Below are positions 1-26,844 of a DNA stretch of 26,844 bases, in pieces (position 1 is the stretch's first letter; each line of letters starts with the position of its first letter). Source of the stretch: Candidatus Omnitrophota bacterium (GTDB lineage Bacteria; Omnitrophota; Gorgyraeia; Gygaellales; Profunditerraquicolaceae); contig JAQUMS010000001.1 of assembly GCA_028717985.1 (NCBI GenBank), positions 1-26,844 on the forward strand, written 5' to 3'. Both the position numbers and the translations under genes were made by a program. Under the pieces are notes generated by a model. It was not told the DNA's origin, made no database searches, and was given only the letters and a program-made list of their open reading frames with translations.

Positions 1-1
1 A

Positions 2-307
2 AGCCATCAAGAGAGAAACAGCGGCGCCGAAATAAATACTCGACTGAAACATGGATTTAAATTTCACCGCGAACTTTTTATCAAAAGCTTCTTCAAGCAG
101 GAACTGAACAACGGCAGTAAAGAATACAACTTTATACGCATATTCTCCGAATGCAAAGCCGTTTAGCACAACTGACTGATAAAAATAAGCCGTGTTAAAC
201 ACAATATCCCGGTTCATAGCTACCATACCTATGATAAACGTAAGTATATTAAATATCCTCAGATTGGTCTTAGTATACAATTTTAAGACTGCATTATCCG
301 TGGCTGA
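2..307 (-). other. Start of a hydrophobic, probably multi-pass membrane module (truncated by the window edge)
   Basis: After DGG at 308-316: LRIFNILTFIIGMVAM, VVFFTAVVQFLL, SIYFGAAVSLLMA, which are hydrophobic stretches of TM-like character. Family not assignable. Confidence 0.55.
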
Positions 308-9300: not shown

Positions 9301-12300
9301 TCGGATTGGGAAGTGATCCGTAATCAACCGTGTACAAATTGCCAAAACTATCCCTTGAATGCAAATACCAGGGAGCAACATAAATGCTATCCGCTCCTAA
9401 TTCAAACATAGCGTTTCCATGATACAATTCAACCCGGCCCAGGCCGCCGGCCATAGGGGAAATTTCCGCTGTTAAATGGTAAATACTTCTCCCTGTCAGT
9501 TCATACGCCTGCATTTTCAACCAATCCTGCACAGCACGTTCATAATCAAGATTTAAAGCAATTGCATCTTCTAACGCGGAGTTTCTCGGACCGCTTAAAA
9601 TCCAATCAGCCATAGTTTTACGGGATGATTCATCAAAAAACATTATTGCCCGGAGAATCACGTGATTTACCTCAACCGGATATCTGCCCCACAAAGCGGT
9701 AACTTTAGCGTATTCCGCGATCACATTAAGAAATTCTTCTTTGCCATGAATAAACCCTTCAGCAAGATCAACATTGATATCTTCCACGTTTCTGGACCAT
9801 ACCGCGTATAACCGGGCATTAAGATCAACGGTAACTTTATCTTCTTCAACGCTAAAATCTTTCCGGTTGCCGCTTTTTGCATTAACAATCAAACCTCTGC
9901 GGCGCAGGCCGTTCAACAAAGAAATCACGTGATCTCTATCCCAGGTAAAACCATGTGCTTCAAAAACATCTTTGGTTTTCTTTAAAATCCTATTTACGGT
10001 AATCTGGCGTGACGATCTTTCATTTAATTCCGAGATTGCCCATACCACCATAAAAGATTTAACCCATTCCGGATCATGAATACCGCGAATAGATTGTTTA
10101 TCCGGGAATGGCCAGGGGATTTCATAACTTCTCTGTCCCGCTTCCGTTCCCGTTGAATAGGCATTCGCAGGAGATATTACATTCCCATTAAGATATCCCG
10201 GATACGTTTCAATACCTCCATCAGACTGCTTCCTCTGCATGATATCTTTGATACGTTCCAAAAATTCATCGTAATCAGCTAAACCCAAATATTGTTTCCC
10301 ATCTATATGAACAACAGAAACGCCCGCTATCTTTAATATTACAGAAATATCGGGAAGAATAACTTCTTCATCCCCCAACGCAACGCGTGTTTGATATTCC
10401 TTAGCTTCTTTTTGAGTAAAATAGAACAAGGTTAATTTTTTATGGTCATATTTAATAAAGAATGTTTTAGGCCTCATCCCGGCTTCTATTTCCATTTCTT
10501 TTAAGACTTTCTGATCAGGTTGAACTGCCGTTATAATGATCCCGCCTTTGCCTTTTCCATTATAAATTTCTTCAAGAGAAGACCCTTCCAGTTGAGATCT
10601 GGAATCTTCGGCCGTTATACCGTTAGCCATCTGGTGGTTAAATCTTTTAAGATTTTCAATTCTTTTCCAGGTAGCAGGAGTGGAAGGAATACGCATTGTC
10701 CTCACAACTGGCTTTTCCCCCCCGTCTCTATAATTTATATCTTTTACTATCTTACTATTAACAAAATTGTCCTTCCCCATTCTGTCCTCAAAAAATTCAG
10801 GGCTATTTTTGTCTCCTAGTTGTAAAAAATCATTTAAATTATTTTCAATATCCAACAAAATCTTATTAATTAATAACAGCTTTTCAGTTTCTAAATTTAA
10901 TTTTGAAATACTCTTTAGAGTAATATATTTATTTATTAAAAAATTTATTTTCAATAGCCTTTCAATATCGTTTTTATTGAATTTTGCTTCGGGGAATCTT
11001 TTTTTATACATATATCGAATCCATTCTGATTTAGCTCGTGCGATAAAAGACAAAGTTGATTCACGTATAATACCAAGTTTACGATCTTCATAAATTAAAC
11101 TTATAGATTTCAATTCTGTAGTAAATATTTTCTTAAAATATGCATCTGAATTATTAATTTGCTGCTGTATACCCGCAGCAATACTTCCGTCAAATATTCC
11201 ATCCCATTCATCTAATTCTTTTTCTTCTCTCTGAGAAAGAGTATAATATCTTTCCACTTCAGCAGGCATCTGTCCGTACACTAATTCCCCTATTTCTGCA
11301 CCCCTTATAAAGGTACGAGCAATAATCTCCCTCCCAAACTCGTGTCCTGGGACAAAAGAGCGGAACCAACAAGAATGAAGACTTATAATATCTTTTTCGA
11401 TTTCGACATCAGCTTTGCCCAAAATTACATTTTTTGAAAAATAATATACTTGGGCTGAAGATAATTTTTCATCATAAAATTTCCACGCTTCAAATATCTG
11501 ATGACTTTCAGGAAACTCCCCATAATTACTAAACATTGGCAATAAACCTGTTTCCTCCAGAAAACCATACAAGATTCCTCGTGTTTCTTTAATGTCCTCT
11601 TTTCCTTCCCCACCGTCTTCTCCAGAGAAATCTTTTACTATTTCATGCAAGATACGAATCATACTTTCTTCTTTATACGCATATTTTCCGTTTATCTCGG
11701 AAAGCTTCACATCGGATACTTTGACAAAATACGATTTAATTCCTTTTCGTGCTAATTCCTCCTTAAGAGTATCCTTATTAAATTCCGCGGGATCTTCGGG
11801 AACAATTTTACTGTATTTTAATTCTCCAATCGCGATCCGTTTTTGGATTTCCGGTTGCTCCAAAATTTTCCTCTGTTCTTCTTTCAGCGCTTGAAACTTC
11901 CAATACGTTGCGGCATCAATCTCCTGAGGATCAAACAGAACTATATAATCACAGATATCCTTAAATTTAAAACTTTTGAAGGAAGTATTCATCCGAATGG
12001 AGCGTTCAATCAACTCTATCTGTTGTATTACAGAAAGACCTTTACTTTCCGTATCCTGCATTATTTTAAACATAAAAATTCTGGGGATATCTTTTCTGGC
12101 TGCCATTTCTTGAGGGATGCCTTCCGTCATCAAATTCGGCAGTAAAGATGTCACAAAACTACAATCGCCAAAAATAATCGCCTGTTTCGTTGAACGTATA
12201 CCTTCAATAGCTTCGAGATTCGCATATGAATATTCACCGGATTTCCGAAACGCATATGTCCTTATTTTTCCCTGTTGTACTCCTACTGCTTTCATTTCAA

Positions 12301-15300
12301 CATTCCTAAAAATAACTTTTTCTATTGGAGTCAAATGATAATCTTTAGCGTCGGATATATTGGTTTGTTCTTCTACCATACGGCTTTTAAATTCAATAAA
12401 AGAATGATTAATTTTAAGAAAAAACCAAGAGGTATTTGTTGGTAAAACATAATCCTGGTTCCGATATCGTATAAAAGTTTTACCTTCGTCTCCTTTATCC
12501 TCACTAATTGTAAATTTTTCACCGTTACATCTTAAAATAACACTGCCATTCTTATTAACGGTTAATTTTATTTTCTTTCCGCCAAGGGTAAAAGAAACTC
12601 CTTTTCTGCTAATCAAATGAAATTTATCTGTTTTTAATGGTGTGGTCCTAAAGAAAATTTTTCGTTCTTTCACATTTTTGCCATCTTCTATTCTCTCCAC
12701 ATTTATTACAATCCCCTCTACTTTCGTGTAATAAAAATTCCCGTTCGCCTTGCCGATAACCATAACTTCATCATTAATTTTAACTCCCATTCCCTGCAAA
12801 ATAGCCGCCATGGAAGACTGGTCAAAAGAACATGGCACGGCCAAACCATTGATAGCGCCTACCATTTCATAGACGCCCGGATATACTCTTCGTTCATTAC
12901 TAATATGTTGATTGCCCTTTTTCAATTCTCCGGTCAAATATCTGCTCATGACGTAAAAAAGATTTTGCCAGCTTGCTCTATTAACCCCAAAACTCGCCCC
13001 ATTCAAACTCTCGGTTATAATACCGGGAGCAACCCATTCCCGATCGATTCTCCGGGCAACAGAAAACATATTAGCGCAAAAGAAGTTCCAGTCTACAGGA
13101 AGATTATCACGAAAACGGAATGTAATATCTTTGATGTTTTCAAAAATCTGTTCCTCAACCGACTTTCCTGTAATCCTTTTCAATGTCAACAATTCTATTT
13201 TAGAATCACTCAAAGTAAATATGCTCGGGAAAACGCCAATATCTCCGGTCGCTAACGGATATTTATCCCATCCTGGAACATTCAATAATGAATCTTCCAG
13301 CTTTCGTATGTGGCCACCGTCATCAGAAACCCCATCTATCGCAAGAACAATTAATCTTTTATAATTCCTGTATTTATCGCCTGCTTTTTTCATAAAATAA
13401 TTAACTAACGATTTTAAAAAAGAAGTGGTTCTAATCCCTGCGCCTCCAATCCAAATGTACTCGATTGGAGGGGCACGCGCAAGTTTTGTAAAATTAAGGT
13501 TTGAATAAAGAGATTTTGAGTCTTTAATTTCAAGGATACCAACAATTCCCGCTACAATTTCATCTAAGAATCTTCCGGTGTGATCGGCTTCCACTTTAAG
13601 TATTTGCAGTACTTCATCGGCATCTTTCTGATATAATCTTTCAAATAAAACAAGATTCTGTTTATAATCTTCCTTACGGCTCATACCTAAGCCGCCGTCG
13701 TTTTGACTGGGGGCGGTTATTTCAGATTCAGATATTCTTATCAATGCTTCCAGTTCTTTAATCCCGAATAATCTCTCTCCTCTATGTTCTCTGGCGTATT
13801 CAACCGCACCTTTAAGCACCAATCCTGTCCCCACTTCATTCCCACCTACATAATTTTTATGCACAATATCCATGACATCTTTCTTTCCCTTAGACGTCAC
13901 ACTCACGCTTCTCTCAAATCCCATCTCCTCATACGCCGGCCAATCGTTCCCACCCTTCTTTTCGTCATCTCCCAGGTATATCGCATCCAGTTCTTCTTGT
14001 TCTTCTGCTTCCTCATTTAACGCGTTCAAACGGTATCCTGTATATTCCTTAATATTCCCCTCTTTATCAAACACATTCAAACTCGCCGCTCCATTGGCTA
14101 CAACTATAAACCGGTTCCGAATCTCTACCGGCAATGCATCTTCTGCTAATATCCTTTGTAATGTCAATCCTAAATCATTTCCCGAGATCAACATATATAC
14201 CCCGCCTGCATTCAAGTATTCTATTAACGCCCTGTATGCCGCGCTTTTCTTCAATATCGGGTTCTCTGTTGCAGTCGGTTTTCCATATAACGTTCCATCT
14301 CCATCTGACATCACGATTGTCATAGTCTTCCTTGCGTCTATTACGATTCCCGCTTCATATCCTGCCACTTCAAGGATTTCTACCAGATGGCTTCGTACGT
14401 ATCTGATCGGTAATGCTTTATCTACTCCGGCGATATTTGCTTCCACTGTCATGAATCCGCCCATCTTCAACGACATCTTCTCCGCCCCAGGCAATCTCCT
14501 AAATTCTTTCATTGTATCTTCTCGATAATTCAACGGTATCCCGATTATCGCTACCTGCGCTGCTTCTCCACTTGATTCATTCCTGCCTCTTACTTCTATA
14601 CGCGGAATACTACTACTATCGCGCTTTAATAAGGTTTCTGTGCTGTATTTTGCCGGTTCTTTTCCATATTCTTCTACTGCTTCCCACAACCCCTGCACTT
14701 TCGATAGGTCAGCATACGCGGATTTTCCGCCAGTACTCAGTTTCTCTAAGAATTTACGAATCTGCCTCCCTCCTTCTTCTACAAGCATCTCGGTCAATTC
14801 TTGACTTAATAAAGTACTGATTATATTATATTTTTGTTTAAGATTGAAAAATGTTCCTATAATATCATGATCATAAACATTAACACTAGCACAAAAATGT
14901 TCTAAATAAAGGTTGTCAACCAACAATAAAACCGACTGCTTTAAGGGCCTAAATTCTTCTATTTTTTCATATAATATTTTATGTTCCTCTTCTGTTAAAA
15001 GTTCTTTAACATAGAATAAAGTCATATGGTAAAGTACGGGATTAAATTGATTAAATTCCAAAAAAGACTCTTTCACACCCTTATTTATTGAATCGAATAT
15101 TTTATAGTCAGAAACGCCATCTGGATAAAATTCCAAGATAATAATGCCCCCTTTAAATGCTCCGATTTTTATCCCTGACAATCTTAAAGAACCAGGAAAT
15201 GAATCTTCTACTTTGTTTCTTAATAATAAAATAACATCATGATTATTAGGTGTTGCATTATTAATTACTCCGAGTGTAATATGTAAATCATGCTCTTTAA

Positions 15301-21300: not shown

Positions 21301-24300
21301 ACAATTCCATCATTTCAGCAGCTTTCTCCGCGTTCATCTTCACCACTTCTGCAATATGCGCCGCCGGTAATTCTGCCATCGCCTCTTCCATGGAAACCTG
21401 GCCTAAGCCCATGATAAACGGCCGTGAGTTAAACAGATAATCGGTTGTAAACGTGTGGATTAATCCATCCCGGGTCCTGCCCAGGGATTTCAATAACGCT
21501 TTTCCGGTCTGCTGAAGCGGTTTTCTGGTTTCGCGGTTCAACCAAGCCTTCAGACAAGGTTCCATTTCCGTCAAGATTGATATGGACATCGCGTCGCCCA
21601 TCTGAGCGATTCGTATAAATCTGCCTATCATCGCGTTGCTCACAGCACGGGTAAGTTTAACCGGTTTTATTTCCGCCCCATATTGATCTGCGGCTTCCTT
21701 CCCGAACAAATACGCCTTAAGCTCAATCAAAATACGATTAACCAGGTATGTTTCTTCAACAGGAATTGTTCCCAATGTCTTGATCTTGGCTATTTTAACC
21801 AGCATTGTTTTTTCCGCGTAGGCTGATTGCAATAATTCCATCACGATGTTTTCATCCGTAAATTTATGGTTTTTCTGCAAACCAATATCGTTAAGATATT
21901 CCGTCAAGAAGTTCACCGCGCGATACCGAACAAGCATATCTTCCGCGTCAATGCTTAATTCCACTAAAGCCTTTGGCAAATCAAAATTTTCGGCATTAAG
22001 TTTAATTAACGCGCGGTAAGCCTGGATCATTGTGTCGCGATTCGCAAGCGCTTCACTCAACGCGCTAATAACGGCTTCATCGTTTACGCCTAATTCTCCA
22101 AGCGCTTCCGCCATACGAACACCGGCCAATGGATCTTCGTTTTCCAATCTATTGATCAATACATGCTTTGTTTCTTCCGCGAAAACGGTATTCTGAAGCT
22201 GTTTCACTAATTCAAGAATACGCGTCCGGGAAATCTCAGTTCTTAAAAGTTCAACACCATCAGCAGTTACATCTGTTCTTCCGTCCACCATCCATTGTCC
22301 TTCGCCTCCCTGCTCAACATCCCCGCCGTCTCTATAGCTCATAGAGTTTGCGTCCTTCGTCCTTCGTCCTTCGTCCTTCGGATTAACATTTTCTTCCTGT
22401 CTATTTTTAATGTTATTTTCAATTAATTCTCTATCACTTTCAGATGGAGTATAGAATCGCGCGATTTCAGATAATTCCCTAGTTATCAATAACCGCTGTA
22501 GCCTGCTTAACGCAGGATTAACTTCCATGTTGCGTAATACTCCGACTTCATGCCTGAATAACTTCCGGGTAATAGGATGTATTTGCCTATTATCTCCACC
22601 GTCACGATAGCTCATAGATGATAGCAGATAGCTCGTAGTTCTTTGCTCTTTGCTCTTTCTCTTTGCAAAACCGTTATTGCCTTTACTCTGTGCGCTATAC
22701 TCTGTACTCGGTCCTTGAACTACTTGGTCTCTTGATCCCTTGAGCACTTGGGCACTTGTTTCTCCACCATCGTTGGTGTTCTTAGCTTCTTGGTCGCTTG
22801 GGTTCTTGGTCTCTTGGACACTTACATTTAGTGATTTCTTAAGAAATTCTGCCGCTTCCAATACATTCGCAGAAATTGATTCTAAACTGATCCAACCCTT
22901 AACTGAATACTCCTGAATTTTGTTGATTTCTGCTAAAGCATCAATAATTTCCTGATCTGTCCCTGTAACTGTGTATGGAGCGTAGGTATAAACATGAACC
23001 CTTAAAGGAGCTACCTGTTGCACGAAATGCTGTATAAAATCAAGATAGGATATTCTCATCTGTAAAGGCTTGGACATAAGAATCACGGTATAATCGCCGA
23101 AAGATAATAAACCGCTTGATAAAAGCATTTCCTTTGCATTTTTTATATTCTCATTTGTATTGGTCGATTTAGTTTCCAGGATAATCTTCTCTTCCGGAAC
23201 AACATGAAGCGTCAATAACTTCGCGATAATTTCAGCTTCGCTTAAAACTTCAATATTTTCAAATACATTGCCGAAACCGGCCTTCCTGACGTTTTCAATT
23301 AACGGAGCAGTTAACCTGCCTTGAGCGCCTGAAACCAAAATCTTATCAGTCTTTCCTTCAGTATACAACCCGGACGCATGCCTCATGGTTGATAGATCAT
23401 CATTACCTAATAAAATGGTCATATCAGCTTTATACACTGGCAGAACGCTGATCTTATCATGAGCCATAGTCAAATAATCGGCAATTGTCTGCAATGCTTT
23501 TGCCTGCTGTTCTCTGGGATCTGCTTTCTTTCCGGCTAACCATTCATTCAGCTTCCCGGTCTTATGGGCATACCACAAACCTGCTGCGAGGCCAATTCCA
23601 ACACCTGCCACAATACCGAAGAATTGAGTCTCAGCCATGAATTTCAAAAGCGAGCCATTGTCAACAAAGAAACCTCCATCGTTATGTTTTGCTTCTGTAA
23701 TTTCAATCAGGATATCTGCAAGATAATTATTTTCATAAAGCGGTTTCTGCTTTTTTATACCTGTTATATGATCTTCAGGCACATCAATGATTTTTATTCC
23801 TACCGCCTCCAAAGATTCCCGCTCAGTCCCCAGAAATAATGGCTGTTTACCTTGCACTTTTTTGCTTACCTGCGCCTTTCCTTCTTTAATCGCAAGGGCA
23901 TCTGTTCCCGTAATAATTATTGTGCTCAAATATTCCGAAGTTTCCGGTTTTAAATCAGGAACCACTACATGCGAAATAATATCTTCAATCTTGACTTCTT
24001 GATTAAGTGTCCTGCTTACATGCCGCCGTACAGCCTCAAGCTGCCATCCTAAAGATACCTGATCTTTAATATTTAATGTATACTTATCATCTTTACTCAA
24101 TGCCGCCTTATCAACCGGTTCACCTTTATTATCAAGAATCTTAATCGATTTTGCAGTCTCTAAATCCGCCTTTATCTTGGCTATGAATACTACCGGAACT
24201 CCAGCTTTTCTTCTTGATACCAATTCTTTGGCGATTTCAGGATATAACAACACTGGCATCAAAGATGTCCATAAAGAACCATTACCCATAATTATTGCTT

Positions 24301-26842
24301 CGGATTCATTTAACGCTTTGACCGCCTGACTGCTTGCCTTAGGATAATGTAACGACGTCTGGTCGAGTCTTACAAAATCACGGCTTGCCTTTTCTTCATC
24401 CGCACCTACACGATGATGAAAAAATATCTCCCAGACAAAATCATCGTGGATACTATCTGTCATTCTTGTCTGCGTCCTAATAGAATCCCCATTCATATAT
24501 ACACCTACAAGCGAGCTGTGTTCATAATCATAACTAACGGGTATAAACTGTGTTCCCTTCAACGCCAACAACTGCTCTACTGTGAAAAATTCTCCCGCCT
24601 GAACGCCTTTCTCGCCGATTAATCCGTTATCATATGCCGCTCCCATCAACAATAAATTAGCACTCGACATTTTCTTTAACGGAATTATACCTTTGCTGAT
24701 TAATTCACGGTCAAGCATCTTTCCTAGATTTAATATACTAGAGGTAAATACAAAAGAATCTTCAGGAATTTCAAAATTAACTCCTTCTTGGTTCAAGATT
24801 TCCCCGCTTTCTATTGCTGATCTTAATTGCGCTTTCCTGACAGGATTTGACATCGCGGAAAGCATTTCGGCAAGCCTTCTTTCCCATACGGGATAAACTT
24901 CTTCAGCGGTAATACGCCCTTTAGTTGTCACAAATACAGGCATTTCTTTAGGATTAGACTCGCACCAGAATAATGTTAGTATCTTAAAATTGTCATCGCT
25001 TAAGAATATTGCCAATCCCGACGTATCGCCCGGCGGGATAAAATAAATACCTAATTTATTGAATAAACTCGCCATAATTTCCCAGCTTGCTCCTCCATCA
25101 TCCGATGATGAAATAATACAAGCTAAAAGTCGTAAGCCTTTGGCGATAAATTGCTGTAGCAAAGTTGTAGTAGCCTTACCACCTCCACCTAAATAGGCGA
25201 TTTTCGGTGGTGCACGTCCAGATTTCCCTTTAAGTATCTCCTGTTTATATCTTAAATAATATCCATCCTGGAAATATCCCGCTAAGGTCCGGCTGATGCT
25301 AATCTGGGTCTCTTTATGCGCCGCTTCGATATCACGAATTAAATCTTCATTTGTTTTTTTCAAATGATCTTTATATAACCACTGTAAAAATGCGAGTGTA
25401 CGAGCAGCCCGAGGATCTGTTCCCGCATAAAAATCTATTAAATTCAAGCCGTGATGTTGCAAATAAATTCTATCTATTATTTTAAAATAATCATCTATAC
25501 AGGAAACAGTGTTATATGCTTGCATTACGTCCTGTAATGCCCTGTTTAATTCTTGGCCCTGAGCAACTTTCATTCCTTTCAAATAAAGCCTGGTCCATGT
25601 AGAACTTTTTAAATAAGTAAGATTAAATGAATCATAGGTTTCGCTTAAAAAATCAATTTTCTCTTTAAAAGTTAGATTGTTATATCGTCGGGAATTTAAT
25701 TGTTCCTCCAGATATAATAATGACGCTATCGAACAATAATCATGCGATTTATCTTTCAAATCTCTAAAGTTTCCGCCTTTGGATATTCCATCAAGGAAAT
25801 AATATATTGCTCCCAATCCAAAACCTATATGTTTAAAGGCACTCCCCGATATCAGCTGTTTATTTCTCCCGTTTACATCATTTATATAACGATGTATCCC
25901 AGGAACAAGTTTAAACGGTTCATCTTCCGAATAAACCTCAAGATTACCAAATAGTATTGCATCTTCCCCTTTAATCCCTCGCTCTTTTAGATAATCCTGC
26001 AACGCATGATCTTTACCCGTTTTAATATTCCTGATATCTATTGAAGTTACGCCGGATTCCCGGACTATTATTGTTTCTTTCAAATCAGGATTTTGTTCAA
26101 TTGCCGCCTTAATGTCTTTAAAATATGATTCTCGTAAAGATTGTTCTTTTGCCTCTAAATTAAAAACTTCCAATTTCCTTGAAGGAAGATATATCATACT
26201 TATACTGTATACTCTTCCGGAAATATCTTTGTGGAAAATTATCTCCAGATCTTTAAATGTAAAATTAGGATATTTATTTCTCCATACACTCTTGTTTTGT
26301 TGATATTCATCCCAATATTTTTTCTTTAAATCTTGCAGAATATTATTTATGGCAGATACGGACTTTTCGGTAATATATGTTTTTTCGTTATATGTGTTTT
26401 TAGTCAGAGGTATTCCGTATTCATTGAATTCCACCTTGAATGTTCCAGCTGACGCATATATTACCAAATTCTTTCTCACATCATACGGTATCAGCTCCAC
26501 GACTCTTGAATAAATACCCTTTTCTTTCGTATGATCGTCATCGTAATACCGTAAGTTACTAATCAGCACGATCTTCTGCCCTTTCCTCAGCAGTTCCACC
26601 AACGGCTCCCGTACAAAGCTTTCTTTTAATGTCCCTTTACGGAATTTGTCATACGGCAAAATTACTCCATCCGGACCTCCCAATACTATTACTTCCGGAT
26701 TCCCGCTCCTTTCGTAGCCGCCGTCATTTTCAATTTTAGAGGGTTCATGTTCAACCCTGATCTTCTCAATAACCCCAACCAGATTCTCATTCTCATACAA
26801 TGGACTCTGCGTCTCAATTCCTGTAACCTTGCTCTCATCTAT
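2..26842 (-). CDS. Giant multidomain protein, internal fragment (>=8,947 aa; start and stop both outside the window); DGG-delimited carbohydrate-metabolism and cell-envelope modules
   Basis: Manual translation of the minus-strand frame whose codons begin at + positions 2,5,8,... shows no TAA/TAG/TGA across the window. Recognisable enzyme motifs occur in this one frame from end to end (EPCGLTQ at 629-649, HLHIQ at 2897-2911, SDDGG three times, DGDGT at 14291-14305, STNTNEN near 23150). Confidence 0.96.
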   Translation of the reverse strand, partial: MDESKVTGIETQSPLYENENLVGVIEKIRVEHEPSKIENDGGYERSGNPEVIVLGGPDGVILPYDKFRKGTLKESFVREPLVELLRKGQKIVLISNLRYYDDDHTKEKGIYSRVVELIPYDVRKNLVIYASAGTFKVEFNEYGIPLTKNTYNEKTYITEKSVSAINNILQDLKKKYWDEYQQNKSVWRNKYPNFTFKDLEIIFHKDISGRVYSISMIYLPSRKLEVFNLEAKEQSLRESYFKDIKAAIEQNPDLKETIIVRESGVTSIDIRNIKTGKDHALQDYLKERGIKGEDAILFGNLEVYSEDEPFKLVPGIHRYINDVNGRNKQLISGSAFKHIGFGLGAIYYFLDGISKGGNFRDLKDKSHDYCSIASLLYLEEQLNSRRYNNLTFKEKIDFLSETYDSFNLTYLKSSTWTRLYLKGMKVAQGQELNRALQDVMQAYNTVSCIDDYFKIIDRIYLQHHGLNLIDFYAGTDPRAARTLAFLQWLYKDHLKKTNEDLIRDIEAAHKETQISISRTLAGYFQDGYYLRYKQEILKGKSGRAPPKIAYLGGGGKATTTLLQQFIAKGLRLLACIISSSDDGGASWEIMASLFNKLGIYFIPPGDTSGLAIFLSDDNFKILTLFWCESNPKEMPVFVTTKGRITAEEVYPVWERRLAEMLSAMSNPVRKAQLRSAIESGEILNQEGVNFEIPEDSFVFTSSILNLGKMLDRELISKGIIPLKKMSSANLLLMGAAYDNGLIGEKGVQAGEFFTVEQLLALKGTQFIPVSYDYEHSSLVGVYMNGDSIRTQTRMTDSIHDDFVWEIFFHHRVGADEEKASRDFVRLDQTSLHYPKASSQAVKALNESEAIIMGNGSLWTSLMPVLLYPEIAKELVSRRKAGVPVVFIAKIKADLETAKSIKILDNKGEPVDKAALSKDDKYTLNIKDQVSLGWQLEAVRRHVSRTLNQEVKIEDIISHVVVPDLKPETSEYLSTIIITGTDALAIKEGKAQVSKKVQGKQPLFLGTERESLEAVGIKIIDVPEDHITGIKKQKPLYENNYLADILIEITEAKHNDGGFFVDNGSLLKFMAETQFFGIVAGVGIGLAAGLWYAHKTGKLNEWLAGKKADPREQQAKALQTIADYLTMAHDKISVLPVYKADMTILLGNDDLSTMRHASGLYTEGKTDKILVSGAQGRLTAPLIENVRKAGFGNVFENIEVLSEAEIIAKLLTLHVVPEEKIILETKSTNTNENIKNAKEMLLSSGLLSFGDYTVILMSKPLQMRISYLDFIQHFVQQVAPLRVHVYTYAPYTVTGTDQEIIDALAEINKIQEYSVKGWISLESISANVLEAAEFLKKSLNVSVQETKNPSDQEAKNTNDGGETSAQVLKGSRDQVVQGPSTEYSAQSKGNNGFAKRKSKEQRTTSYLLSSMSYRDGGDNRQIHPITRKLFRHEVGVLRNMEVNPALSRLQRLLITRELSEIARFYTPSESDRELIENNIKNRQEENVNPKDEGRRTKDANSMSYRDGGDVEQGGEGQWMVDGRTDVTADGVELLRTEISRTRILELVKQLQNTVFAEETKHVLINRLENEDPLAGVRMAEALGELGVNDEAVISALSEALANRDTMIQAYRALIKLNAENFDLPKALVELSIDAEDMLVRYRAVNFLTEYLNDIGLQKNHKFTDENIVMELLQSAYAEKTMLVKIAKIKTLGTIPVEETYLVNRILIELKAYLFGKEAADQYGAEIKPVKLTRAVSNAMIGRFIRIAQMGDAMSISILTEMEPCLKAWLNRETRKPLQQTGKALLKSLGRTRDGLIHTFTTDYLFNSRPFIMGLGQVSMEEAMAELPAAHIAEVVKMNAEKAAEMMELFNTNDGGEFSPKDEGRRTKDANSKSYRDGGEVLANEGQGTFSLDARRFLVELDYVMRMLGISDYKRVVQILRTSIDSVAFVKGMAEAAGLGTDEAAEILEGVKFFRPVVEDYKLRQVKEYGKGEFADKKISVDIQAEGYGIEGGESSVEGGAITEYLRFMRETAGMVSFVFRDNMNDFTGRFLGLTAIKGASKYPDLKELIERLDAYFATVDLGRIEYVFTSGIGANEMYTHQLAWALNKYFEMRGIHVKWVVVNNPAHLKIIPAGANNKNTLIFEMSRSGSTKETVDFFNATKDRFKQRIVAANSGKLNEAGKELMKDADARILVIDDIPGDIGGRQMNRKTLMVYIPLYLGLVAGLKDVEEARKYLEYYVSTMAGANEELAYSNGLKSGGIKLAEMLFRQRMNGHNRFAIIYDNDLRFIAKEFLQLNNEGANKNIAGGTNNNVLVGYGLESDRTLYETVFEQAGNTQLPIFLLNRNNGNYRQAYEYAESLERRGIPVIIVSLDIKEDLRNNLEVIGRTSSLLQDMVVYFTYLTKQDANSNPAVKFVREITAAMFEIEKAKKARGDKDIRVTFEDVISKIQAKETENRIKSEKSIDVDKKDKTKRIIRRGYEEAEGEDFRTFMEAIVEVGTKLMIAESRVVRVLTSAIAEEVFKSDFAEAGGSKISDMEAAFGKSFMDAMRKTDNKPVTLNQQVVIETQDQDKMKISVAVEKGEEIETEGYSAAEALGMYLIKMFTGRKEKMMYMPLTFMEVDAENPKIKAIARGIVERFAGKGITCPLLGLPGVAHTGIEAIMSHPENVFNIAIVYTNTYGKGLGTQMVEENITVDDATYVYGIANVIRMALGGSPTIIFEVRDAKDLDEVKAILEPALDMLKAWMTSDGGYERSGNPEVIVLGGPDGVILPYDKFRKGTLKESFVREPLVELLRKGQKIVLISNLRYYDDDHTGEKGLATRIVKYLPYDVRKNLAVYASAGTFKVEYNEYGIPLTENDYNNSNYIPEKQVEVIESVLKEQANRFWAEYEGNKSLMRNKYPNYPFKKPEVILHRDAKGRVYSVSIIHLPSKKLEIVNIEEGEMSPREECCRGTIELLKKYHSLFWEEYTVRESGITSIDIRKRHTGKDHALRDYLLSREIEGKDALLFGNLQVYSEDLPFKNVEGVRRYINDIVEKTDENYEVEGFKHIGFGLGVVYYFLDGMSKGKTFVELREAGDYCLNAAETYLKRQNVKRVNRSLTFAERMEVLSEVYRQFNLNYLNRASWIDLYQLGIGMKRGEELYEALEEMKNIYEVSKTAEEYFAGADKIYGGREGIEFMKFYAGIDARAARTLGFLESVYKDNLKRNNRQLEEAVWDVKKNTGLSVGRILAGYFQDGYYQKYKESILEQYEGRGPPEKKGLLDLVYLGGGGKATTTFLQRLIAKGLRKIACIISSSDDGGASWEIMASLFKNLGMYFIPPGDASGLAIFLSNDNFKIFTLFWSESDADKMPEYVTTKGRITGEKLYPVWEKRLSEVLTAIEEPTQKEEIKSLIRKILKNPSEEFEKSTDYLIFLSSVLNLGELVDRELVGQGIIPLKKMSSANLLLMGAAYDMGLLSGGKDSQAVGFPNLDKLMALGETQFIPVSYDYEHSALVGKYENGGLVAAQTIMTDKAHKEFIREEYFTHRVDIGKEANNFIELDINSENYPKASRQAVEALSRAKAIVMGNGSLWTSLMPVLLYKEVAEELVNRRRLGVPVVYIAKMKADLETSKDVRIEKEGKVVESKDIKEEEEYELNISEQLTLNKQLEAITWHISKVLGREVKIEEIISHVIAPELSEDAKVKLGEVKIKGKDAKLVLQGSAQVSKHVKGGQPLFGEGEEADLQARGIEIVRIDESKVTGIETQSPLYENENLVGVIEKIRVEHEPSKIENDGGERKNNTIKNKDDKSSLEQKYKDAYKQVYKVSRAAVAKTRKDLGIAVCIDKDNNPLPLEGLSTIIRPDDENAKKILSIQQGLYGVLPESLQKKMIFVKEHDLHITLGVINNATPNNHDVILLLRNKVEDSFPGSLRLSGIKIGAFKGGIIILEFYPDGVSDYKIFDSINKGVKESFLEFNQFNPVLYHMTLFYVKELLTEEEHKILYEKIEEFRPLKQSVLLLVDNLYLEHFCASVNVYDHDIIGTFFNLKQKYNIISTLLSQELTEMLVEEGGRQIRKFLEKLSTGGKSAYADLSKVQGLWEAVEEYGKEPAKYSTETLLKRDSSSIPRIEVRGRNESSGEAAQVAIIGIPLNYREDTMKEFRRLPGAEKMSLKMGGFMTVEANIAGVDKALPIRYVRSHLVEILEVAGYEAGIVIDARKTMTIVMSDGDGTLYGKPTATENPILKKSAAYRALIEYLNAGGVYMLISGNDLGLTLQRILAEDALPVEIRNRFIVVANGAASLNVFDKEGNIKEYTGYRLNALNEEAEEQEELDAIYLGDDEKKGGNDWPAYEEMGFERSVSVTSKGKKDVMDIVHKNYVGGNEVGTGLVLKGAVEYAREHRGERLFGIKELEALIRISESEITAPSQNDGGLGMSRKEDYKQNLVLFERLYQKDADEVLQILKVEADHTGRFLDEIVAGIVGILEIKDSKSLYSNLNFTKLARAPPIEYIWIGGAGIRTTSFLKSLVNYFMKKAGDKYRNYKRLIVLAIDGVSDDGGHIRKLEDSLLNVPGWDKYPLATGDIGVFPSIFTLSDSKIELLTLKRITGKSVEEQIFENIKDITFRFRDNLPVDWNFFCANMFSVARRIDREWVAPGIITESLNGASFGVNRASWQNLFYVMSRYLTGELKKGNQHISNERRVYPGVYEMVGAINGLAVPCSFDQSSMAAILQGMGVKINDEVMVIGKANGNFYYTKVEGIVINVERIEDGKNVKERKIFFRTTPLKTDKFHLISRKGVSFTLGGKKIKLTVNKNGSVILRCNGEKFTISEDKGDEGKTFIRYRNQDYVLPTNTSWFFLKINHSFIEFKSRMVEEQTNISDAKDYHLTPIEKVIFRNVEMKAVGVQQGKIRTYAFRKSGEYSYANLEAIEGIRSTKQAIIFGDCSFVTSLLPNLMTEGIPQEMAARKDIPRIFMFKIMQDTESKGLSVIQQIELIERSIRMNTSFKSFKFKDICDYIVLFDPQEIDAATYWKFQALKEEQRKILEQPEIQKRIAIGELKYSKIVPEDPAEFNKDTLKEELARKGIKSYFVKVSDVKLSEINGKYAYKEESMIRILHEIVKDFSGEDGGEGKEDIKETRGILYGFLEETGLLPMFSNYGEFPESHQIFEAWKFYDEKLSSAQVYYFSKNVILGKADVEIEKDIISLHSCWFRSFVPGHEFGREIIARTFIRGAEIGELVYGQMPAEVERYYTLSQREEKELDEWDGIFDGSIAAGIQQQINNSDAYFKKIFTTELKSISLIYEDRKLGIIRESTLSFIARAKSEWIRYMYKKRFPEAKFNKNDIERLLKINFLINKYITLKSISKLNLETEKLLLINKILLDIENNLNDFLQLGDKNSPEFFEDRMGKDNFVNSKIVKDINYRDGGEKPVVRTMRIPSTPATWKRIENLKRFNHQMANGITAEDSRSQLEGSSLEEIYNGKGKGGIIITAVQPDQKVLKEMEIEAGMRPKTFFIKYDHKKLTLFYFTQKEAKEYQTRVALGDEEVILPDISVILKIAGVSVVHIDGKQYLGLADYDEFLERIKDIMQRKQSDGGIETYPGYLNGNVISPANAYSTGTEAGQRSYEIPWPFPDKQSIRGIHDPEWVKSFMVVWAISELNERSSRQITVNRILKKTKDVFEAHGFTWDRDHVISLLNGLRRRGLIVNAKSGNRKDFSVEEDKVTVDLNARLYAVWSRNVEDINVDLAEGFIHGKEEFLNVIAEYAKVTALWGRYPVEVNHVILRAIMFFDESSRKTMADWILSGPRNSALEDAIALNLDYERAVQDWLKMQAYELTGRSIYHLTAEISPMAGGLGRVELYHGNAMFELGADSIYVAPWYLHSRDSFGNLYTVDYGSLPNPITDIKPYATMETFIQGCKVRFEVAQGYLNVKRGDTVNLIPIYLIRDIPENYHCRIINILYEYSTCDCPASIWEFTEFFNKAALELIRKREVEKKHEKELLHEEYKSCVVDSNDAQTLPVAAFRKAFYSKKESIAPAPDKDEAFEIMNSALFSGTTHTYYNRAWADDFEFGKNFLRKAGIPDEWLWLFLHIFVDDYGTWKVVWDLTSGGVRASDVSKAVAAVHAFEVNKYDPAVDLFGVTNGDNYVYSSEFFRDALIKTGSRDYLHPTPLEILAAKSYVKKEMGLNQYQMVVGYFGRLVPEKAGRKRAFTNVNIEAMVKAGIQVVIYGVARWNPVMRGELEALEADLKSKKEKEPDVYSGRFIFKSQFSIDDQRKALAATDVQIQDSDRETEAAGSTESDIGANGGLQLATPYWEGMIPFMGDLVNREKMTGNVLMPEKDSAESYLKVVLWANEQYQSGELSQLQSYAYKISGFVDARYTAAAYLRFWHNGFRGKRAVVNPRVVGEIGIDSKYLTLTSTTSRGEISIFKDENEFYLMGKKKEVGNLAKNLILTLSISVDPEFAPFGSSRVPEDSIFVELVNDHGIRLKFSPVRKIYDNVIEYSLTIPEDFPLPFKGTVRATSGLWQQVRSFEIVPEEYDPLEGDELIETLCPVDFKVNDARNILFGKFGMFPFGFETSEGMQYANSAGIIGFMNKANMLLKNGTTIRTPFYHFIRYIAGLCEGCVTKDILVKHMRFIGSKQISDEEKMKELLELLKQFTRRSEYRLVESWVNGLTIEQMATLMIGNKNVNSFSFRTVSGPVTAETSGLKSFETVLKNLIANRHAEPVIENDFMDFIKYMDAMFKGVKGWEEIMAYLQTIAQEPVPSFLKAYFLFRFVEKLNEKMEENLVEAFINKATLDNAETVLNSGKFDMKPFEFYTLRGRWMADSAGLQDFLFTMKQVNGKGGVSFHDYMNYLRKLFEDMPDSKYMMDYLEYVGSHEIPEYKKFVALLEKLEVRLISRIQYYRMFSCEPAQSGFKCEVDLESPERFFDGGIADKNTVITSGIKNQSGNEILVTRKKMVMNIKDTLLKKADILGALRAPVSEVEAVKLISRYQLNIIMALANGTAYDSLQKGAQRKIAMENYEYLLSLMGVDAHFKKTIRTASHKIVNIKILQIKKTFSDKALAIKAKGEVMNILEARDIVGRYYYIIHALAVSLPYSSLREDFRNTIAEDSYEYLQDEMVNDKLFGMVITEADTMVLADKVKHESVWERAKILADSENGKLILKDSLKLIGNYAYVLLGLARGLKYVELHSNGLEMVSFHTYNEIVETLTGNPVFRSAVTGSISGIDVTPEYYKQVLEDKADLLLLQEGKISRALAEGLIGYHFEVMRILAEGMPYSSLSDYARRQLSAGIYYYLAREIVDDAGFGRKIVRASGKAINIRMEGIKNKILASARKIVNDEEIVGITQAKAKINHNYLIIHSLAHAQQFEISPVGRQKILVKASYEFLLGEMKRDEMFADYIIHADQMVIAKNGWRKILMGRAQVLAAKKNANMSPEDAVKLIGNTYFVLRGLSRSLAYQELDHCAWDNISQDEYENILGNKKRDIEFTKIVNNAMRNIYIHQRDITGSLIKKASLVLALDKRIDFWSARKLFGRYIYIFEGLADNVSYRGLDIEAQNLMTSAEYEALLIEVKKNDELKELIVQADSALGIGFWDKRLIILNKAKDIIAHKSSLTLAQASGIVGPYRYVLRALDENLPYHSVYAETRAVVSEKQYAVLQDLMKEDYLFAVMIRNAVSIIKVQKSNFNINEITHNPIMAVFLEIQSGDVSEKWKQSLSVRDQEYADIFEYLRENDDVLKRVLQLFMIGEVNSDVLARIIKDQLKQPQLKTVTGFGSHMLGAIHRALAKRGYVFDEEWVVTPKTVELLIGYTRNYRKAEGKIFNTDELYSVPSVLARLEEIAGISAVGIQYPLAPEKGAAFSASGFMPQGGIIAQNRENDGGDESEFDRNLKREWDRKFKQGLFGFDISRVSLRDEGKFKVLFHPDRPMTINLMKQLMPPIQGYNPSKFNFHKANPQELLMSLNVGGVNTDLFINIQPRVAYNFFMVPERKANLPQVISEREIRVALALLDMSKASNFRLGFNSLGGGTRVFHLHIQGFYYWGVIPVEKFATETVEDISGVLFEKTVDYPAESYVVRSENALGVARLTSMIIAQFLRNNIPHNLIFARSGPEKKIVILPRKSIFPIINETYLDFGWQEISGEIVVPTKEMFENITENDIHYLLASIAEPLAFTIRKVGAEAKSISVRVLEDGGTSRKKSARGQTKEINVAYAEIEKARLEERGYRIQGVNPVIMSQWKDPAKRDVDLYLHALVLIAGIELELPYGVGKIDVYRAVRESNIILIKEASRPVPEMYFDIISRTLYIFEKLDDFSSEELALKLMSTVLRAVSRLRIPAADESSWKNIRNYLQPANFKKVITLLRPDWPERPFRSLQIAEIALEVTRLTYKVGGLADVGYGLSKELAKIGHNVDIFTLKYSKPTNSPADQNLRYEYIGSVWVPIGSTWTVEVKVYRTNLHTLPGIHDLKGRLRGYVLEPVGSGSVLAEYPYSDQLSLEQAILISRGSLQAMKDIPELHKNSYDIIHAHDKDSALSLVYKDGLPEFRHYFSRMQPILTINNIRHQGVHSFDRFSLLNLPYEYGGVFDNFGSMNLLKGGIVKSNRANTVSERHAYELTTAEGGRDLDWLLSQKAREFRFSGIINGIDYNFYNPATDPILPFRYDFAHGNVRESFEQKRNNKEVLQKLLGLKVDRTAPVIALIARLDDQKGVGLLAAKIRDILKANRNAQIIVAGREYDKQSVDQIRWLPFEYDPEGKWDFRGRAYILPKFLDESIVHLVYASADIFLVPSLDEPCGLTQMIAARYGTPAVVRYVGGLADTIENYDPLRKTGYGFVFFDPTPEALQEAIQRALETYSQEDHWLRILENLRKVDFSWNNSAIKYILMYWDAMTFNGASGKSVFEQDGGSATDNAVLKLYTKTNLRIFNILTFIIGMVAMNRDIVFNTAYFYQSVVLNGFAFGEYAYKVVFFTAVVQFLLEEAFDKKFAVKFKSMFQSSIYFGAAVSLLMA
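368..1895 (-). other. glgA: GT5 glycogen/starch synthase domain
   Basis: LQIAEIALEVTRLTYKVGGLADV (KxGGL at 1835-1849), IIHAHD, LLKGGIVKSNRANTVS, GIINGIDY..NPATD, IARLDDQKG, VPSLDEPCGLTQMIAARYGT..VVRYVGGLADT, GFVF, DFSWNNSAIKYILMY. The full GlgA motif series is in the correct order. Confidence 0.95.
2438..3361 (-). other. HIT-superfamily GDP-hexose phosphorylase domain (GDP-L-galactose phosphorylase VTC2 / GDP-D-glucose phosphorylase GDPGP1-like)
   Basis: EWDRKFKQGLFGFD, YNPSKFNFHKANPQELL, LFINIQP..FFMVP..LPQVI, FRLGFNSLGGGTRVFHLHIQG (HxHxQ at 2897-2911), FGWQEISGEIVV. These parallel the VTC2 motifs EWEDR..GLFRYD, KFNFTK and FRLGYNSLGAFATINHLHFQ. DGG lies on both sides. Confidence 0.85.
3900..6040 (-). 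repeat. Eight degenerate ~90-aa helical protein repeats of unknown family
   Basis: The motif [LI][IVF]GxYxY(V/I)(L/I)x(A/G)LAxx(L/M)xY recurs with the Gly-position codon at 6029, 5753, 5483, 5213, 4940, 4670, 4400 and 4130. Spacings are 276, 270, 270, 273, 270, 270 and 270 nt. Confidence 0.8.
7442..9490 (-). other. Alpha-glucan phosphorylase (GT35)-like GT-B domain with C-terminal beta domain; PLP-lysine position is Asp
   Basis: YHLTAEISPMAGGLG, IYLIRDIPEN..ILY, DSNDAQ, FSGTTHT (8831-8842), SKAVAAVHAFEV, FGVTNG, GYFGRLVPEK, IQVVIYG, TDVQIQDSDRETEAAGSTESDIGANGGLQL (8105-8131 = EAAGSTESD), then a beta domain ending YSLTIP..GTVRA. Order and spacing match bacterial GlgP. Confidence 0.78.
10223..11608 (-). 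other. Two DGG-bounded modules of unknown function (294 aa at 10727-11608; 165 aa at 10223-10717)
   Basis: Open in the main frame and bounded by DGG at 11609, 10718 and 10214. No motif recognised. Part of the region is very AT-rich (8 G+C in the 60 nt of 10921-10980). Confidence 0.6.
11640..13470 (-). other. YvcK/GlmR (UPF0052, CofD-like) domain, divergent copy C, with a ~130-140 aa beta-rich insertion
   Basis: YIWIGGAGIRTT, LAIDGVSDDGGHIRKL, LATGDI, VEEQTNISD, ANLEAIEGIRSTKQAIIFGDCSFVTSLLPNLMTEGIPQEM, IPRIFMFKIMQDTES, AYKEESMIRIL. Confidence 0.75.
13750..14810 (-). other. HAD class IIB (Cof/PMM-like) phosphatase or mutase domain with non-canonical motif order
   Basis: EANIAGVDKA (motif III-like, 14414-14428) precedes SDGDGTL (motif I, 14291-14305), LISGN (motif II, 14177-14188), ANGA (14087-14098) and YLGDDEKKGGND (motif IV, 13943-13972). 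Confidence 0.8.
14880..15420 (-). other. 2H phosphoesterase (LigT / cyclic phosphodiesterase fold) domain
   Basis: Two Hx(T/S)-hydrophobic motifs 85 aa apart: DLHITLG (15272-15283) and LYHMTLF (15017-15028), preceded by EGLSTII. AT-rich segment. Confidence 0.75.
15588..15714. repeat. Perfect direct repeat of 26718-26844 (end of the YvcK module including the DGG codons; the match runs off the window)
   Basis: 127/127 identical, offset 11130 nt (in frame). Confidence 0.97.
15600..17130 (-). other. yvcK: YvcK/GlmR (UPF0052, CofD-like) domain, copy B
   Basis: LVYLGGGGKATT, ACIISSSDDGGASW, FIPPGD, SSANLLLMGA, QFIPVSYD, YPKASRQAVEALSRAKAIVMGNGSLWTSLMPVLLYKEVAEEL..PVVYIAK..LET. Confidence 0.85.
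17740..18652 (-). other. Degenerate (pseudo-)HAD IIB domain, copy B
   Basis: VIVLGGPDGVIL (motif I with the nucleophile Asp replaced by Gly), IVLISN, VYASAG, SGITSIDIRKRHTGKDHAL (motif III), LLFGNLQVYSEDLPF (motif IV, GD changed to GN). Confidence 0.65.
18464..18661. repeat. Near-identical direct repeat of 26528-26725 (start of the HAD-YvcK module up to the DGG codons)
   Basis: 198 nt with 4 mismatches, all synonymous; 18549-18661 is a perfect match. Offset 8064 nt. Confidence 0.95.
18670..19230 (-). other. Second, partial PGI-like C-terminal (SIS) segment
   Basis: MMYMP..ARGIVERFAGKGITCPLLGLPGVAHTGIEAIMSHPENVFNIAIV..ALGGSPTIIFEV parallels the PGI segment Y..L..QL.AESLGK.G..P....G..DQHS..Q...GP.D...A...GRP.I.I. 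It ends at DGG 18653. Confidence 0.5.
19640..20790 (-). other. pgi: Phosphoglucose isomerase (SIS)-like domain
   Basis: VFTSGIGANEM (20621-20638), LIFEMSRSGSTKET (20444-20470), IPGDIGGRQ (20291-20305), AIIYDNDLRFIAKEFLQLNNEGANK (19997-20023), YLTKQDANSNPAVKFVR (equivalent to NPFDQPGVE..K). Confidence 0.75.
21211..21272. repeat. 62-nt direct-repeat cassette copy 1, containing (CGTCCTT)4 and the RDGG codons
   Basis: Identical to 22321-22382 except one base (21231 T vs 22341 A). Encodes PKDEGRRTKDANSKSYRDGG. Confidence 0.97.
21290..22321 (-). other. Alpha-helical module with a HEAT/PBS-lyase-like repeat
   Basis: LINRLENEDPLAGVRMAEALGELGVNDEAVISALSEALANRDTMIQAYRALIKL (about 22010-22160). The module is flanked by the two 62-nt cassettes. 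Confidence 0.6.
22321..22382. repeat. 62-nt direct-repeat cassette copy 2, containing (CGTCCTT)4 and the RDGG codons
   Basis: 61/62 identical to 21211-21272, offset 1110 nt (in frame). Encodes PKDEGRRTKDANSMSYRDGG. Confidence 0.97.
22604..22830. repeat. Degenerate 7-nt-periodic tracts forming low-complexity in-frame linkers
   Basis: atagctc-atagatg-atagcag-atagctc-gtagttc-tttgctc-tttgctc; tactctg-tgcgcta-tactctg-tactcgg; tacttgg-tctcttg; tcttggt-cgcttgg-gttcttg-gtctctt. They lie between and next to DGG 22595 and DGG 22763. Confidence 0.75.
22850..23490 (-). other. YdcF / DUF218 (ElyC/SanA-like) domain
   Basis: IADYL..KADMTILLGNDDL..ASGLYTEGKTDKILVSGAQGR..SEAEIIAK..VPEEKIILETKSTNTNENIKNAKEML..VILMSKPLQMR. 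Confidence 0.85.
23563..23625 (-). other. Single predicted transmembrane helix preceding the YdcF domain
   Basis: FFGIVAGVGIGLAAGLWYA, uncharged and Gly-rich, followed by HKTGK. Confidence 0.75.
23700..25205 (-). other. yvcK: YvcK/GlmR (UPF0052, CofD-like) domain, copy A
   Basis: KIAYLGGGGKATT, ACIISSSDDGGASW, FIPPGD, SSANLLLMGA, YPKASSQAVKALNESEAIIMGNGSLWTSLMPVLLYPEIAKEL. Paralogous to 15600-17130 with many synonymous differences. Confidence 0.85.
25780..26716 (-). other. Degenerate (pseudo-)HAD IIB domain, copy A
   Basis: Same GGPDGVIL, IVLISN, SGVTSIDIRNIKTGKDHAL and ILFGNLEVYSEDEPF motifs as copy B. Confidence 0.65.
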
Positions 26843-26844
26843 CC

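Follow-up and report, generated by a model that had tools for sequence, protein, structure and literature searches.

The YvcK, GlmR and CuvA proteins (family UPF0052) of Bacillus subtilis, Listeria and mycobacteria are about 310 amino acids (aa) long, and their biochemical role is disputed: they are seen either as regulators of GlmS that are gated by UDP-N-acetylglucosamine (UDP-GlcNAc) or as accessory uridyltransferases. Their loci lie in a rapZ/yvcJ or whiA neighbourhood, and the canonical yvcK locus is syntenic with yvcJ/rapZ (PMC7525490). The giant multi-enzyme proteins of Omnitrophota contain GT5, HEAT and sugar-phosphate enzyme domains, with repeated Pfam domains as a rule (bioRxiv 10.1101/2023.11.21.568195; bioRxiv 10.64898/2026.06.07.730766). 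At least one Pfam domain is repeated in 65% of these giants, and the repeats are old (bioRxiv 10.64898/2026.06.07.730766). Here we describe three YvcK-like domains, termed copies A, B and C, that are encoded within a single giant open reading frame (ORF) on a 26,844-base contig of a Candidatus Omnitrophota bacterium (JAQUMS010000001.1). This contig (C1) is analyzed over its entire length and is called the window below. It is the longest contig in the bin of a landfill metagenome-assembled genome (MAG; 1.63 Mb, 299 contigs, 79.8% complete, GC content 43.5%).

The window is a fragment of an Omnitrophota giant multi-enzyme gene. Its frame is very long, contains no stop codon and combines many unrelated enzyme domains (Table 1). 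The initial annotation had placed the three copies correctly but did not mention that one 8,947-aa ORF crosses the whole window. CofD, DUF218, GT5 (glycogen/starch synthase) and GT1 score above their Pfam cutoffs in this frame, and matches to HEAT, HAD-IIB and a glucose-6-phosphate isomerase (PGI)-type domain (a weak NCBIfam match) fall below curated cutoffs. Omnitrophota relatives have frames of 17,867 and 68,606 aa, and at least 24 other contigs of the same bin consist of one ORF that is open at both ends. The described giants, known as "Archaeovorins" and as the "multi-enzyme metabolic" class of Gorgyraeia giants, have GT5, GT1, HEAT, sugar-phosphate enzymes, transmembrane segments and anciently diverged repeated domains in common with this system; the same is true of C39 peptidase domains, which here occur in other giant-ORF fragments of the genome. 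In contrast, CofD/YvcK domains, the tri-domain module and the junction motifs described below go unmentioned in the main texts of both giant-gene papers. We found no literature linking CofD/YvcK domains with Omnitrophota, the giant-gene papers being judged by their main texts. Thus, Omnitrophota giant multi-enzyme genes with repeated domains are already known, as are the YvcK and CofD families; what is new is a remodelled YvcK branch specific to giant genes, the A/B type of which is fused to a pseudo-phosphomannomutase domain.

Table 1. Coordinates of the giant ORF, the modules carrying YvcK-like domains and the associated repeats in the 26,844-base window.
Feature	Position	Strand	Remarks
Giant-ORF fragment	2..26842	minus	8,947 aa, stop-free, open at both contig ends; 17 x-D-G-G junctions between modules
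Module A	23672..26716	minus	Giant residues 43-1057; HAD-IIB/phosphomannomutase-like fold (~25763-26701), helical domain, YvcK-like domain
YvcK-like domain of copy A	23672-25207	minus	
Start of A compared with start of B	26538..26725 vs 18474-18661	minus	~98-99% nucleotide-identical over ~190 nucleotides, synonymous sites included
DUF218 (YdcF/ElyC-type) module	22763..23671	minus	Follows copy A directly; single strong hydrophobic helix at the N terminus
Module B	15587..18652	minus	Residues 2731-3752; HAD-IIB/phosphomannomutase-like fold (~17699-18637), helical domain, YvcK-like domain
YvcK-like domain of copy B	15587-17140	minus	
Module C	11609..13690	minus	Residues 4385-5078; second-type YvcK-like domain, beta-rich insert of ~150 aa
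YvcK-like domain of copy C	about 11609-13690	minus	
Contig-terminal 127-mer	26718..26844	minus	100% identical to 15588-15714; encodes DGG and the final 42 aa of an A/B-type YvcK-like domain
Internal twin, tail of copy B	15588..15714	minus	Logan contig break at the DGG-side edge alone

The initial annotation had put three YvcK/GlmR-like copies at 23700-25205, 15600-17130 and 11640-13470. All three are real, lie essentially at those coordinates on the minus strand, and are the only such places that a scan of the genome returned. Each domain was scored alone against Pfam PF01933, which has a gathering cutoff of 30 bits. B (50.0 bits), A (47.9 bits) and C (40.2 bits) all exceeded it, and the possibility that hidden Markov models would not assign them to UPF0052 is not borne out. 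None of them belongs to the YvcK subfamily as delimited by TIGR01826, where scores of 51.4 (A), 55.1 (B) and 29.4 bits (C) fall below the curated cutoff of 196 bits. TIGR01826 is nonetheless the best NCBIfam model for A and B, and for C it is narrowly surpassed (29 bits) by TIGR04357, a GAK CofD-like model (32 bits). The CofD equivalog TIGR01819 gave no match at E ≤ 0.01 for any of the three.

Structural comparisons gave the same assignment. In sequence comparison with the Protein Data Bank (PDB), B matched the UPF0052 structures 2Q7X, 2O2Z, 2HZB, 2P0Y and 2PPV best, and hhalign aligned the A/B-type profile with a canonical YvcK profile over the full length (probability 99.7%, E = 1.6e-25). 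The AlphaFold (AF2) model of the whole of module B has a predicted local distance difference test score (pLDDT) of 88.4 and a predicted template modelling score of 0.87, and the models of B and C both contain the full CofD/YvcK domain fold. Foldseek ranked 2ppv, 2hzb, 2o2z and 2q7x at the top for both. For residues 505-1011 of module B, the template modelling (TM) score by hit is 0.79 with B. subtilis and Listeria YvcK, 0.72 with Escherichia coli YbhK and 0.63 with the Mycobacterium leprae protein; no CofD/FbiA structure is among the 50 PDB and 30 Swiss-Prot matches listed. The AF2 model of C is less certain (pLDDT 68). YvcK again ranks best, with a TM score by hit of 0.67 for B. subtilis YvcK, and CofD and FbiA give weak partial matches. 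By profile and by predicted fold, the domains are YvcK-like and not CofD-like. Like YvcK/GlmR/CuvA (2O2Z, 2HZB, 2PPV, 2Q7X), they have the whole-domain fold (TM by hit 0.7-0.8), but they are larger, at about 500-630 aa with large insertions, and they lie inside a giant ORF, several to a gene, those of A and B being joined to a helical domain and a pseudo-HAD domain.

We then compared the residues that serve ligand binding and catalysis in GlmR. Four motifs show little or no variation among modules whose overall identity is 35-45%: GGGG-x-ATT in the Gly-rich loop, SSSDDGG, FIPPGD and GNGSLxTS. The Gly-rich loop, DDGG, PPGD and GxGSxxTS are also found in YvcK/GlmR/CuvA. In Listeria GlmR, the residues predicted to be catalytic are D40, D41 and N198, and uridyltransferase activity was abolished in the GlmR3 variant, which has all three mutated (PMC10128056). 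The two Asp residues of SDDGG, which map by motif to Listeria D40/D41, are conserved in A, B and C. The Asn equivalent to N198 by the same kind of mapping is replaced by Val in A, B and their subclade and is kept in C and in subclade I; copy C thus retains both SDDGG and the Asn of an "LPN" motif. The B. halodurans structure shows residues T14, N218, Y265 and R301 (B. subtilis numbering) in contact with NAD, and the B. subtilis protein requires them to bind UDP-GlcNAc (PMC5482804; PMC7525490). These contacts are largely replaced in the copies. An invariant Lys within IAKIKxDLETS occupies the N218 position, an invariant P-L/M-Y-x-N stands in place of the canonical C-terminal RHDP motif of the R301 region, and no conserved Tyr appears where the Y265 region aligns. 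The copies have also lost the Arg of the canonical GDIRN motif and the QYRF motif.

A and B are paralogues (57% aa identity), and conservation between them extends beyond the YvcK-like domain to the full ~1,000-aa module, which DGG junctions delimit. The entire module is also conserved in other genomes and metagenomes at 35-62% identity. Module residues 6-318 adopt a HAD-IIB fold most similar to that of phosphomannomutase (PMM)-type proteins (TM 0.6-0.8), residues ~320-500 are all-helical, and residues ~505-1011 form the YvcK-like domain with its two insertions. HAD phosphatases and mutases have a motif I of the form DxDx(T/V), with the nucleophilic Asp after strand 1. The corresponding DxDGT position reads GGPDG(V/I) in 15 of 16 aligned module copies, and the sixteenth (P0005) does not align there, so the HAD-like domain lacks this hallmark in the A/B modules. 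Motif III still has its Lys (TGKDHAL), and motif IV is partly preserved. We conclude from these motifs that the domain is a conserved pseudo-phosphatase or pseudo-mutase that plausibly binds a sugar phosphate. A close parallel is a cluster of HAD_2-YvcK fusions in the ESM Atlas (531 aa, 414 members, commonest in Planctomycetota), in which a HAD-superfamily domain is likewise fused to a YvcK-like domain; those are small standalone proteins with another HAD subclass (PF13419), whereas the A/B modules are HAD-IIB/PMM-like.

Copy C represents a second type that is older than A and B. A sample of 151 genomes from the order yielded the C type in 12 (our own included), all of the same family. All matches lie in long frames of 1,524-57,099 aa, and G004 has two full-length copies.

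We searched broadly for the A/B-type domain and surveyed YvcK in the family. An exhaustive HMMER pass over 1.84 billion representative proteins returned 65 matches to the A/B-type domain, 16 of them strong, and nearly all were in long proteins with about 500 residues ahead of the domain. Relatives' loci were found with an alignment-based contig scan; a single-sequence scan with module B gave no match. These loci belong to records named Candidatus Omnitrophota bacterium and Candidatus Aceula meridiana, and some third-party MAGs are labelled Planctomycetales. Essentially each of 121 genomes of the same family has one standalone YvcK (a 411-466 aa frame, ~380-400 bits). The statement that canonical YvcK is normally single-copy therefore holds here, with exactly one in about 118 of 120 genomes of the family. 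In two relatives the standalone protein scores 389-397 bits on TIGR01826, as a full member, and lies between a PtsN-like IIA gene and ptsI. The ordinary YvcK of loci L011 and L012 (relatives G024 and G013) has an N-terminal extension of ~115 aa that is hydrophobic (transmembrane-like) in the alignment, and rapZ is not adjacent. We found no canonical YvcK in our own genome, which is most simply a gap given that the genome is ~80% complete.

About a quarter of the 121 genomes have additional, much weaker CofD-family matches, mostly in frames of ~1,700 to 68,606 aa, and a few of these are second standalone paralogues. Open frames of 68,606, 57,099 and 57,756 aa (G009:C1, G069:C6 and G020:C5) also hold divergent CofD-family domains, two of them within 4 kb in G009. 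Three A/B-type copies occur in one 17,867-aa ORF of G010, and two each in L020 and L024, showing that several modules per ORF are recurrent in Omnitrophota giant genes. In L020, the nearest genome, both modules lie in one ORF and are flanked by DGG. In P0025, a module tail is followed by a module start within ~47 residues.

A maximum-likelihood tree of 25 full modules resolved three old subclades, and the three copies of G010 fall one in each. A and B belong to a single subclade with the topology (A,(B,L020)) (support 100/99), in which B is orthologous to the L020 module. The duplication that produced A and B therefore predates the split from the nearest sampled genome and postdates the family-level paralogy. 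A superfamily tree separated the giant-embedded domains (A/B, C and others) from canonical YvcK by a long, fully supported branch, which fits a single old origin of the domains embedded in giant genes. This was a quick, unrooted tree with long branches, unnamed canonical YvcK sequences and no CofD outgroup. The initial annotation had spoken of an expansion of YvcK/GlmR-like domains. Taken as extra copies of the housekeeping protein, that idea fails: the copies score 29-55 bits on TIGR01826 compared with 389-397 bits for standalone YvcK, and they sit on a separate branch of the tree.

We favor, with moderate confidence, the reading that the copies belong to a giant-gene-specific YvcK branch that binds an activated or phosphorylated sugar and acts with neighboring sugar-enzyme modules. 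The branch separated from housekeeping YvcK long ago and has diversified inside very long ORFs. It would have kept the nucleotide/phosphate-site signature (Gly-rich loop, SDDGG, PPGD and GxGSxxTS) while the UDP-GlcNAc contacts of GlmR gave way to IAKIKxDLETS and P-L/M-Y-x-N. Judging from these motifs and from the neighboring modules, the ligand is most likely a nucleotide-activated or phosphorylated sugar other than UDP-GlcNAc, and a site for binding sugar phosphate would come from the pseudo-HAD domain. The YvcK-like domains may act in cis with neighboring hexose-phosphate, nucleoside diphosphate (NDP)-sugar and alpha-glucan enzyme modules, either tethered or after cleavage at the DGG junctions. 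They could be ligand-gated regulators, or nucleotidyl- or phospho-transferases as reported for Listeria GlmR and CofD; GlmS/RapZ-linked sensing of envelope precursors is probably not their role. The surroundings of the module in relatives are of the same kind. In Ca. Aceula, Pfam identifies a ROK sugar kinase directly upstream of the module and a NUDIX domain directly downstream, and LigT/2H phosphoesterase, HAD, HEAT and PHP domains are also among those identified near the modules of relatives. Independent context for the family's disputed role comes from two features: a YvcK-like domain and a PMM-like, sugar-phosphate-binding fold are joined in a conserved fusion, and this fusion recurs in the company of glycogen synthases, isomerases, NUDIX hydrolases and sugar kinases. 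Both suggest that the YvcK family acts on sugar phosphates or nucleotide sugars. The modules also provide defined, testable constructs and represent a previously unremarked building block of the little-understood Omnitrophota giant genes.

Several points weigh against this interpretation. The function is read from motifs and neighbors, and the neighboring modules vary between genomes with no fixed partner enzyme evident. Catalysis may have been lost in A and B, given the Val at the N198 position. The positions of Listeria N198 and of B. subtilis Y265 and R301 were mapped by motif or profile alignment and not with named Listeria or B. subtilis sequences, and the superfamily tree carries the weaknesses given above. 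Finally, if the giant protein is not cleaved, the hydrophobic helix of the DUF218 module would put A on the opposite face of the membrane from B and C, complicating a single shared role.

The question of cleavage arises from the junctions between modules. DGG occurs 20 times in the giant ORF compared with 2.45 occurrences expected, an eight-fold enrichment. Three of the 20 are the SDDGG motif of the CofD domains, and the other 17 mark module boundaries (window 308-26725), with codons that vary synonymously. This variation indicates that selection acts on the peptide, and a DNA-level signal at the junctions was rejected for the same reason. The motif itself is evidently lineage-specific. Its x-D-G-G form recurs in the closest relative, L020, but the giant ORF of G010 (G010:C5; L016-L019) has (T/A/G)-S-S-P-(I/V) at its boundaries (SSP observed 16 times, 2.3 expected) and no junction DGG, and L029 has D-(A/S)-A-M-L around the module. 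The genome also contains four matches to Peptidase_C39, the double-glycine peptidase (C170:1683-2039, C294:425-817, C32:2047-2316 and C101:898-1317). Three of the four lie inside long open frames (851-2,880 aa), those of C170 and C32 being whole-contig ORFs. These C39 domains are candidates for cleavage after the junction GG. It is conceivable, though we think it doubtful, that the giant ORF encodes a bacterial polyprotein whose modules are complete proteins freed at a lineage-specific junction motif, here perhaps by C39 domains. If so, the YvcK-like modules would be free nucleotide-sugar enzymes or regulators produced in fixed stoichiometry with glucan-pathway enzymes.

The initial annotation proposed that the copies, together with a YdcF/ElyC-type protein, sense or manipulate pools of envelope precursors. 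Under this explanation, GlmR/CuvA-like UDP-GlcNAc sensors and the DUF218 module would monitor or manipulate peptidoglycan or other envelope precursors of the cell or of its prey. The YvcK-like fold and family agree with it, cell-wall action has been proposed for Omnitrophota giant proteins (bioRxiv 10.1101/2023.11.21.568195), and the DUF218 module, with its N-terminal transmembrane helix, directly follows A. This helix (23566-23622, giant residues 1074-1092) is the single strong one in the first 8,800 residues, and the module looks like a complete membrane-anchored ElyC/YdcF-type protein. The association does not extend to relatives, however, as no DUF218 match was found in the G010 contig or in the examined stretches of L020, L024, L031 and L032, and functional coupling to the DUF218 module was rejected on that basis. 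Moreover, the UDP-sugar contacts of Bacillus YvcK (PMC5482804) are replaced by other invariant residues, and the subfamily-model scores are far under the cutoff. A search for rapZ/yvcJ (PF03668) gave no match in the genome, which is 80% complete, and the copies lie inside the giant ORF without the neighborhood of canonical yvcK. The conserved theme around the modules is instead hexose-phosphate and NDP-sugar enzymes. Thus, the family assignment and the DUF218 neighbor of A stand, and sensing of envelope precursors is unlikely.

We consider it comparably unlikely that the domains are catalytically and ligand-dead scaffolds that lend shape or docking surfaces to the giant protein. Near-invariance of the nucleotide-site motifs and of the new motifs, across modules with only 35-45% overall identity, is unexpected for a mere scaffold, even though the HAD-like domain has no nucleophile, A and B lack the N198-equivalent Asn, and the sequences have diverged extremely from YvcK.

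A role as CofD-type phosphotransferases, which would use an NDP-activated donor to create a phosphodiester with a sugar or polyol acceptor, perhaps when building a phospho-glycopolymer, is less probable still. To our knowledge, the only long-established chemistry in the CofD superfamily is the transfer of 2-phospho-L-lactate from a GDP-activated donor. The copies are members of this superfamily and have its conserved DD motif, and CofD-GT2 fusions exist, the ESM Atlas holding an independent GT2-CofD fusion cluster. With CofD and FbiA, which transfer 2-phospho-L-lactate or phosphoenolpyruvate in F420 synthesis, the copies have PF01933 and the superfamily fold in common. They differ in having no match to TIGR01819 and no F420 context; CofD/FbiA structures are not among the matches listed for B, and their matches to C are weak and partial.

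That the multiplicity is an assembly artefact, with strain variants of one module collapsed or joined into chimeras, is very improbable: the MAG is in 299 contigs and its giant gene has exact repeats of at least 127 nucleotides (nt) and near-identical junction-proximal tracts, but A and B differ at 43% of residues, C is of another type, and better-assembled relatives have 2-3 copies per ORF, so that doubt touches a fourth copy only.

Such a copy had been suspected just upstream of A. The observation behind it, that the right end of the window encodes the same C-terminal tail as copy B, holds exactly, 26718-26844 being 100% identical to 15588-15714. The length of this repeat, 127 nt, equals the assembler's k, and contigs C52 and C268 likewise have one terminal 127-mer in common (at their gene-sense 3' ends). 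The repeat at 26718-26844 therefore reflects a branching of the assembly graph and does not supply independent sequence from a fourth copy. Near identity is also seen between the starts of A and B (Table 1), whose longest exact run is 113 nt and whose identity falls to background by ~300 nt. We interpret this similarity as a gene-conversion tract abutting the DGG junction. Because 113 nt is shorter than 127, the spanning k-mers tie together a module tail, DGG and module A, and an A/B-type module must end immediately upstream of A. A single Logan contig of the source run covers 15588-16867 without branching, and thus the tail upstream of A either is B itself or matches B exactly over at least 1.28 kb. 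Logan depth is ~5-10 and noisy, with a rise of ~1.5-fold between 13.6 and 16.9 kb. These noisy data show no two-fold depth across the whole 11.1-kb A-to-B unit and so give no support to its simple tandem duplication. No A/B- or C-type pieces were found on other contigs of the bin, which has no contigs under 2.5 kb and from which a collapsed or shattered copy could be missing; nor did we find other contigs with the terminal k-mers of C1. Together, these results show that an A/B-type YvcK-like tail (C-terminal strand and helix) precedes A, as had been predicted. This tail is indistinguishable from that of B and is not established as distinct from it, leaving a fourth copy plausible.

Contig C268 contains a further repeat of this kind. 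It carries the tail of the PGI-like module (window 18667-18946) at 98.6% nucleotide identity, followed by a HEAT-like module in place of B, and this HEAT-like module has 65% aa identity to giant residues 1530-1880. Sequence next to the junctions seems to be repeatedly homogenized between paralogous places. The short-read assembly is accordingly fragmented because of mosaic junctions, or near-identical junction-proximal tracts, that paralogous modules have in common.

At the other end of the window, the first 12 residues of C52 (7,397 nt; one 2,465-aa ORF) are the last 12 of the window ORF, in frame, and C52 overlaps window positions 1-38 by 38 nt with one mismatch. The giant gene probably continues into C52 for ~2,450 further codons, which would bring it to at least ~11,400 aa. 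Among metagenome runs, the window DNA is complete in the landfill run and partial in sludge, wastewater and soil runs. In the module that follows B (13697-15586, giant residues 3753-4384), the sequence shows 2H phosphoesterase-like motifs of the H-x-T type, Pfam gives a weak PMM match, and a HAD domain, unlike the pseudo-HAD of A and B, has an intact SDGDGT nucleophile motif.

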